IMG/VR virus record: IMGVR_UViG_3300021599_000885
Strand: one strand, 5' to 3'
Length of the DNA: 64,000 nt
From: a virus
Both the position numbers and the translations under genes were made by a program. The first letter of the stretch is position 1. Each line of letters begins with the position of its first letter. Below, in pieces: positions 50,841 to 51,060 of the stretch. The notes under the pieces were generated by a model that saw only the letters and a program-made list of their open reading frames with translations, was not told the DNA's origin and made no database searches.

Positions 50841-50944
50841 GCTCTTAGTATAGGGGGTCTGGGGGTGCTGTGGCGGTTTGGTGGACAGTCCGGGAAGTGG
50901 CACAAGGTGGGTTGTGGGGGGTTGCCGCTGCCCTATAATAAGGT

Positions 50945-51060
50945 CACAAGCGAAGGAGGGGCAGGGTCGCCCTGATGACGAAAACGGTCGCCACCGAACC
51001 TGCCTTCCGGTAATTATAAAAAAGTATAAAAAAAGGGAGGCAATTGCCTCCCTATTGTTT
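50945..51060 (+). ncRNA. Candidate structured small RNA transcribed divergently
   Basis: TATAAT at 50934 lies 30 nt from the shared palindrome; long stem GAAGG..GCAGGGTCG/CGAACCTGCCTTC; ends at a terminator hairpin; no long ORF inside. Confidence 0.55.
51028..51060. terminator. Probably bidirectional terminator
   Basis: AAAAAAA-GGGAGG-CAATTG-CCTCCC-TATTGTTT. Confidence 0.8.

Follow-up and report, generated by a model that had tools for sequence, protein, structure and literature searches.

Cyanophages kill a large share of the picocyanobacteria in the ocean and in lakes. To our knowledge, only a handful of small RNAs encoded by phages have come to light, and no cyanophage has been described with one of the kind considered here. 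An element that Doron et al. 2016 reportedly found upstream of the early genes of T4-like cyanophages consists of a conserved motif and a sigma-70-like -10 box, and is said to serve protein-coding early genes, not a small RNA arm. The non-coding RNAs recorded for the Kyanoviridae are a CfrI antisense RNA, PhotoRC-II, wcaG, manA and the glnA/glutamine riboswitch (PMC9964418). A further system, described for T4-like phages, is the PeSL (Arbiol et al. 2010; Comeau et al. 2014, PMC4122927), a stem-loop joined directly to a same-facing -35/-10 promoter; it recurs in hyperplastic regions as a module of terminator and early promoter that marks the edges of ORFan cassettes. PMC4122927 does not deal with cyanophages.

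Here we report a compact intergenic unit in a T4-like cyanophage genome fragment. An earlier note, made from the letters of this DNA, had proposed a dedicated plus-strand small RNA that runs against the coding direction of the genome, with a decoy, an antitoxin mimic or a primer as possible roles. The promoter geometry, the start, a short hairpin (HP1) and, in most copies, a downstream hairpin fit that proposal, but the long stem and the open reading frame that formed part of it do not. We put the probability at about 0.6 that the unit is an early non-coding RNA gene of ~110 nt, belonging to an undescribed family of T4-like cyanophages (Kyanoviridae).

Location of the unit

The DNA analysed, a 64-kb stretch referred to as the window, is part of the 98-kb IMG/VR record IMGVR_UViG_3300021599_000885, about half the genome of a T4-like cyanophage (Kyanoviridae) whose closest cultured relatives are Synechococcus phages. 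DNA near-identical to the window was found in many lake and freshwater metagenomes. The candidate locus lies in an early ORFan region where nearly all genes are located on the minus strand, and the candidate unit is placed between a Gp96-family gene and a 58-aa ORFan (Table 1). The latter matched no Pfam or PHROG family.

Table 1. Features of the candidate RNA unit and its flanks, in window coordinates.
Feature	Position	Strand	Remark
58-aa early ORFan	50664..50840	-	under the minus arm of the two-way promoter
-10 box TATACT, minus arm	50847..50852	-	28-29 nt from the dyad element
Dyad upstream element GTGGACAGTCCGGGAAGTGGCACA, 24 nt	50881..50904	both	common to both arms; replaces a -35 box
-10 box TATAAT, plus arm	50934..50939	+	29 nt past the dyad element
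Predicted 5' end ACAA and purine-rich leader ACAAGCGAAGGA	50946..50957	+	ACAA begins at the 7th nt past the -10 box
AAGGAGG motif	50953-50959	+	extends into HP1
HP1 GGGGC[AGGGUC]GCCCU	50958..50973	+	sole conserved helix; loop consensus RRGGUM
Conserved middle segment GAUGACGAAAACGGUCGCCAC	50974..50994	+	family motif GAYG-NN-AA-N3-UCGNCAC
12-codon ORF MTKTVATEPAFR*	50975..51013	+	judged incidental or lineage-specific
Conserved tail motif CCUGCC	50999..51004	+	GCAGCC instead in about one third of relatives
A-rich spacer including GUAUAAAAAAA	51011..51033	+	minus strand is the U-run of the Gp96 gene's terminator
Bidirectional intrinsic-terminator hairpin	51034..51053	both	common with the convergent Gp96 gene
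Gp96 gene, Kyanoviridae Gp96 family (PF23790), convergent, upstream	51059..51406	-	family match

A family of related units in cyanophage genomes

Units related to that of the window were detected in well over 100 IMG/VR contigs. Pattern searches retrieved overlapping sets of IMG/VR loci, with the 24-nt core identical in 16, the 5' part present in 79 and the 3'-part pattern in 57. Because many loci were retrieved with patterns derived from the element itself, its apparent invariance is partly inflated, and the 12 unique sequences found only via the neighbouring gene show no clear excess of conservation in the element over that gene. Of 80 loci retrieved via the neighbouring Gp96 protein alone, 16 with enough flanking sequence carry the unit at the same place. 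Three subtypes (A, B and C) differ by small indels, and A and B are often found a few kb apart within one contig. Head, middle and tail variants occur in shuffled combinations, which indicates frequent recombination.

A covariance model built from the unit family, R1, was used for genome searches. Matches were obtained once in the window and its partial genome, twice in S-SRM01, once in DSL-LC03, six times within 8 kb of a complete 258-kb phage and once, weakly, in P-SSM2; all of them fall in unannotated DNA. Syn9 and S-PM2 gave no match at E <= 1, and S-M1 gave a partial match only (E 0.155). Gene contexts differ among the copies, and wherever the flanking genes were checked (the six-copy phage, DSL-LC03 and P-SSM2) they lie on the opposite strand. 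The 258-kb phage has terminal repeats, and its six copies are diverged RNA paralogues (L244, G001:C1:141000-153000; copies at 2367-2442(-), 3350, 4819, 5758, 7236 and 10000(+)). For four of the six, a convergent minus-strand ORF clearly has its stop ~50 nt before the copy, and the loop differs (GGGCG) in three. In three further IMG/VR contigs of 30-62 kb (L204, L225 and L231), a conserved AACCCAU...CUACCUUCAAUCUAGCACGGCG replaces the A-rich tail and the terminator, and the RNA of this lineage may be longer; its promoter has either a terminator directly before it or a canonical -35 box.

In the case of P-SSM2, the R1 match scores 27 bits with an E-value of 7.6e-4 over the whole genome. The unit lies in an unannotated gap of 400 nt, runs antisense to the genes on either side and is laid out like the freshwater unit: a dyad element (TGTGCCAGTTATTAAAGTGGCACA) is followed by 29 nt, TATAAT and a further 6 nt to AACAA, with a mirrored -10 box that drives PSSM2_099. 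The P-SSM2 copy differs in its shorter middle segment, its looser HP1 and the absence of a terminator. It is probably a member of the same family, and this weak match may link the marine and freshwater units. The gap (66289-66684; L251 690-1085, minus strand) holds three tandem dyad promoters that oppose the flanking genes; the first would drive the R1-like RNA, and the other two have no recognisable product.

Rfam 15 families gave no match at threshold in the 64-kb window or in 75 kb of nine related loci, and at E <= 10 only terminator-driven chance matches, none of them relevant, were returned. This test covered glnA/Downstream-peptide, manA, wcaG, PhotoRC, the Yfr RNAs, hammerhead and other small ribozymes. 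Scans for tRNA and tmRNA found nothing. A degenerate core pattern had a single match, on a 4.9-kb MAG contig, among 185,579 prokaryote species genomes, and on that count host origin and CRISPR-repeat mimicry were dismissed. By these searches the unit is phage-specific and not a known RNA family, and literature searches found no description of this cyanophage RNA. For the antitoxin RNA of a type III toxin-antitoxin system, a tandem array of ~34-36-nt repeats beside a toxin gene or a mimic of such an array, no support was found: none of the repeat families listed for the window falls within 50940-51060, and this genome carries the unit as a single copy.

Promoter geometry and predicted transcription start

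The palindrome previously proposed at 50882-50903 proved to be a copy of a 24-nt dyad element with the symmetric family consensus TGTGCCA-N10-TGGCACA, but a poor palindrome in this instance: the copy is imperfect and degenerate, with only 5 of 11 symmetric positions able to pair. The two -10 boxes assigned to it were correctly located and spaced, TATACT on the minus strand 29 nt to the left of 50882 and a perfect TATAAT on the plus strand 30 nt to the right of 50903. At least eight early promoters of the window are headed by the dyad element, followed after 29-31 nt by (CCC)TATAAT or TATACT, and these promoters have no recognisable -35 box. The site in the candidate unit is the only one of eight whose standard orientation faces the plus strand. 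Within the window, CCCTATAMT occurs 6 times against 0.9 expected, and GTGCCACYT 5 times against 0.7 expected. This early-promoter family without a -35 box is spread over 48.7-59.7 kb of the window, with the dyad centre ~41 nt upstream of the -10 box; example -10 boxes are located at 50650, 50847, 50931, 51433, 56841, 57459, 57712, 59007 and 59617.

A mirrored -10 box was identified in 60 of 76 unique related copies using a strict TAnnnT rule, and most of the remaining copies have CATACT when inspected by eye. As the mirrored box is almost always present in related phages, a single dyad site feeding two outward-facing promoters appears to be a conserved design, and the layout of the unit's promoter would indicate that the cyanophage early-promoter element can act in both directions. 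On the minus arm, the ATG of the early ORFan is found exactly 6 nt past the -10 box (TATACT-AAGAGC-ATG; 50838-50852, and again at 50641-50655, both on the minus strand), and the same spacing recurs in 30 of 77 related loci. A block of 29 nt that comprises promoter and start is present twice, 197 nt apart. With this spacing the transcript would start at the A of the start codon, so that the mRNA of the 58-aa ORFan is probably leaderless, and leaderless early ORFan mRNAs are suggested.

On the plus arm, the conserved body begins with ACAA, 6-7 nt past a [T/C]AnnnT hexamer. ACAA could be located in 88 of 98 unique copies, and in 83 of these 88 the hexamer ends 5-8 nt before it. Positions 1, 2 and 6 of the hexamer are kept across copies while positions 3-5 drift, which is the pattern expected of a working -10 box. 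Lineages that do not have the dyad element carry canonical TTGACA-17-TATAAT, TTGACA-17-TACAAT or TTGACG-17-TAGAAT promoters at an equal distance to ACAA, so that two kinds of promoter would arrive at a single start. Across 57 aligned sequences, the AA of ACAA and the AG of GAGG never vary. Transcription is predicted to start at this ACAA. At the level of sequence, the comparison thus provides a feature that a generic small-RNA gene should have, a promoter of its own set at a constant spacing from a conserved 5' end.

A conserved helix on the plus strand

HP1 was found to be paired in 57 of 57 sequences (285 of 285 cells), while slid controls were 46-69% paired. Compensatory changes occur in three of the five pairs (GC to AU/CG, GC to UA/AU, and CG to AU/UA/UG/GU). 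The number of double-change cells is 30, compared with 4.4 +/- 1.8 in shuffles, and was reached by 0 of 500 shuffles; the HP1 pairs also appear near the top of an unsupervised mutual-information scan. A G:U closing pair is present in 47 of 57 sequences, and all five pairs are intact in 57 of 57 on the plus strand versus 5 of 57 on the minus strand. This reliance on G:U pairs, with an intact helix on the plus strand only, argues for a single-stranded nucleic acid as opposed to duplex DNA. The first and last bases of the HP1 loop (50963 and 50968) covary perfectly, with G..A or A..C in 85 of 85 unique sequences, and may represent either a non-canonical closing pair or two linked haplotypes.

HP1 is the only structure for which conservation with compensatory changes on the transcribed strand was observed. 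The other helices proposed are unsupported. The long stem does form in the minimum-energy fold of the window copy (-41.8 kcal/mol and z -3.5 on the plus strand; z -3.6 on the opposite strand), but it is not conserved and performs no better than shuffles, with 61% pairing that 470 of 500 shuffles equal. A second hairpin around GAYG...UCGNCAC, considered in two registers, is 77-84% paired with one compensatory event only, and is missing from type C and P-SSM2. The columns of a possible loop-tail pseudoknot show no mutual information. This is also the case for a pairing switch between the tail and a strand of HP1, where tail variants assort freely with HP1 variants. Likenesses to 16S rRNA helix 45, the 530 loop, group II intron domain V, a C/D box and a hammerhead core, all seen by eye, were dropped because each fits one subtype only or is contradicted by Rfam.

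Beyond HP1, conservation is concentrated in short single-stranded stretches: ACAA, (G)AGG, the loop RRGGUM, GAYG..AA, UCGNCAC and CCUGCC. The promoter spacer, the tail and the terminator stems vary, while ACAA, the HP1 loop and UCGNCAC are fixed. This pattern bears on the possibility that the plus transcript merely accompanies a symmetric two-way promoter, as a by-product, and that the conserved block acts at the DNA level or in cis, either as a mobile promoter-terminator cassette that shuffles early ORFans in the manner of PeSLs, or as an insulator in which convergent transcription stops read-through between cassettes. Points in favour are that the block, in a hyperplastic ORFan region, always has a terminator on one side and the next early promoter on the other, that it turns up repeatedly at cassette borders (six times in 8 kb of one phage), that its head, middle and tail variants are shuffled, and that PeSLs combine a conserved stem-loop with early-promoter motifs in such regions (PMC4122927). 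However, conservation is position-specific and not block-wise, the compensatory changes of HP1 that involve G:U pairs work on one strand only, and the same RNA body is found behind unrelated promoter types. We consider a cassette or insulator unlikely as the explanation of the unit, and favour the RNA gene.

Coding potential of the unit

A further explanation is a tiny mRNA, in which Shine-Dalgarno-like purines would load ribosomes onto an ORF of 10-12 codons of the form M(T/M)K(T/K)V(A/V)T..A.(K/R). The product could be the peptide itself, or the ORF could be a minigene that ties up ribosomes or tRNA, as the lambda bar minigenes do. The 12-codon ORF noted previously is present as described, and so is the AAGGAGG Shine-Dalgarno sequence 15 nt before its ATG, but neither is conserved across the family. 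The ATG and the same stop position are kept, with similar peptides, in 29 of 61 unique variants, and the HP1 loop (GGGGU, AGGGU or GAGGU) is Shine-Dalgarno-like and located 7 nt before the AUG, both of which would suit a tiny mRNA. In nine further variants the reading frame extends into the terminator, and the remaining ones lack a start. The ORF is absent from types B and C, from P-SSM2 and from ~10 type A copies, with the type B frame broken by a 1-nt indel; elsewhere one variant has a TTG start, two have the ATG moved by one codon in frame, and one is interrupted in frame by a stop at codon 8.

Few positions of the core vary more than the two bases forming the AUG, where AAG, AGG, UAG, CAG, CUG and GCG are all seen. 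Substitutions within the ORF are mostly non-synonymous, and conservation is higher in the untranslated 5' part than in the ORF. Neither strand of the family variants has a conserved frame with a conserved start codon; coding in six frames was rejected, with the one mostly open frame having no start codon and variable upstream stops. The conserved start, frame and stop expected of an mRNA for a small peptide or minigene were not observed. A tiny mRNA is, in our view, an improbable account of the family compared with a non-coding RNA.

Terminator and metatranscriptome contigs

The terminator predicted at the end of the plus transcript was recovered as a hairpin, but the plus strand has a far poorer U-run (ATTGTTTATG) than the minus strand (TTTTTTATAC). 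Of 98 copies, 81 are followed by a perfect hairpin of 6 bp or more, with a plus-strand T-rich run behind it in 43 of the 81. No terminator is present in the copies L158, L048 and P-SSM2. This hairpin also belongs to the convergent Gp96 gene, for which it is better suited, and plus-strand termination may be leaky. In ~13 of 61 shared hairpins (for example L084, L093, L143 and L159; GGGAGGCAAT.GCCCCCC), an A.C mismatch on the strand of the RNA corresponds to a G:U pair on the strand of the convergent gene, as assessed by eye and unscripted. If so, the shared hairpin would be tuned for the protein-coding gene.

Another possible role is that of a replication-origin primer. At T4 oriF and oriG, an R-loop transcript primes DNA synthesis, and a G-rich early transcript could similarly persist in an R-loop beside the AT-rich spacer and prime synthesis here. 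The unit has a G-rich 5' part followed by an A/T-rich tract, is non-coding and is transcribed against the gene direction, in line with such a role. Against this, the A/T tract is just the U-run of the neighbouring gene's terminator, up to six copies occur within 8 kb, and an R-loop would not predict the covariation of HP1. We regard priming as very unlikely.

Freshwater metatranscriptome contigs from two datasets (X16 and X17; low depth, unstranded) cover 50621-50989 and 50902-51162 and run across the predicted start, which may reflect DNA carry-over or minus-strand read-through. Two other metatranscriptomes (X18 and X20) contained only diverged pieces of the Gp96 gene. That these contigs are continuous with the neighbouring genes, and that the minus-strand fold of this copy is just as good, would be compatible with a functional minus strand, acting as a 3'-UTR or read-through element or encoding a tiny minus-strand ORF (...VATVFVIRATLPLLRL*). 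However, the unit is positioned beyond a strong minus-strand terminator, HP1 remains intact on that strand in just 5 of 57 sequences, and the minus frames of many variants contain stops, with no conserved start codon. A function of the minus strand is thus highly improbable, and we retain the plus-strand RNA.

Discussion

Comparison among related phages shows the family, its promoter geometry, the HP1 helix and the strand on which it forms. From the same sequences we infer that the unit is transcribed, where the RNA begins and ends, and that it acts in trans. In the model we propose, host RNA polymerase would initiate from the plus arm of the two-way early promoter, where one 24-nt dyad element stands in for the -35 box of two outward-facing -10 boxes. 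Transcription would begin at the conserved ACAA (50946) and end at the hairpin that also terminates the convergent Gp96 gene. The resulting RNA would comprise a purine-rich 5' leader, a 5-bp hairpin with a conserved G-rich loop, and single-stranded motifs, the invariant ones being GAYG..AA...UCGNCAC....CCUGCC, followed by the A-rich tail and terminator. It would most likely act in trans through its single-stranded motifs and loop during takeover of the cell; candidate partners are proteins of the host or the phage, the ribosome and RNA targets.

We would sooner expect a protein- or ribosome-binding RNA than a classical antisense regulator, in view of the single short helix, the scattered invariant motifs, the Shine-Dalgarno-like blocks and the occasional multi-copy arrays. 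The purine blocks in question are GAGG at the foot of HP1 and GGGU or AGGU in its loop. A more speculative proposal, to which we assign a low likelihood, is that the RNA, with these two purine blocks, an AUG that is mostly there but dispensable and an A-rich tail, mimics a translation-initiation region and captures 30S subunits or protein S1. Such an RNA would be made in bulk from the first minutes of infection, from up to six copies per genome, and could bias translation in favour of the early mRNAs of the phage itself, a good many of which seem to be leaderless.

In freshwater Kyanoviridae the family is widespread, and marine P-SSM2 probably has it too; the units appear to be wired to promoters of the early type and sometimes occur in multiple copies. 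If the RNA is confirmed, it would be a candidate host-takeover factor that works at the RNA level. The R1 covariance model, together with the cultured phages S-SRM01 and P-SSM2, allows the RNA to be tested directly.

When compared with described systems, the dyad unit may resemble the early-gene element that Doron et al. 2016 reportedly described, in its pairing of a conserved upstream motif with a -10 box. The candidate unit shares with the listed Kyanoviridae RNAs (PMC9964418) its probable standing as a non-coding RNA of this family of phages, but it stands alone as opposed to forming the leader of a downstream gene, and has no Rfam 15 match. A parallel in layout is offered by PeSLs (Arbiol et al. 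2010; Comeau et al. 2014, PMC4122927), with repeats at cassette borders also seen for the present unit. However, the distance from the stem-loop to the next promoter is ~180 nt here and an opposite unit lies between them; the promoter is headed by the dyad element in place of a -35 box, and the intervening ~110 nt form a conserved, oppositely transcribed sequence with a covarying helix.
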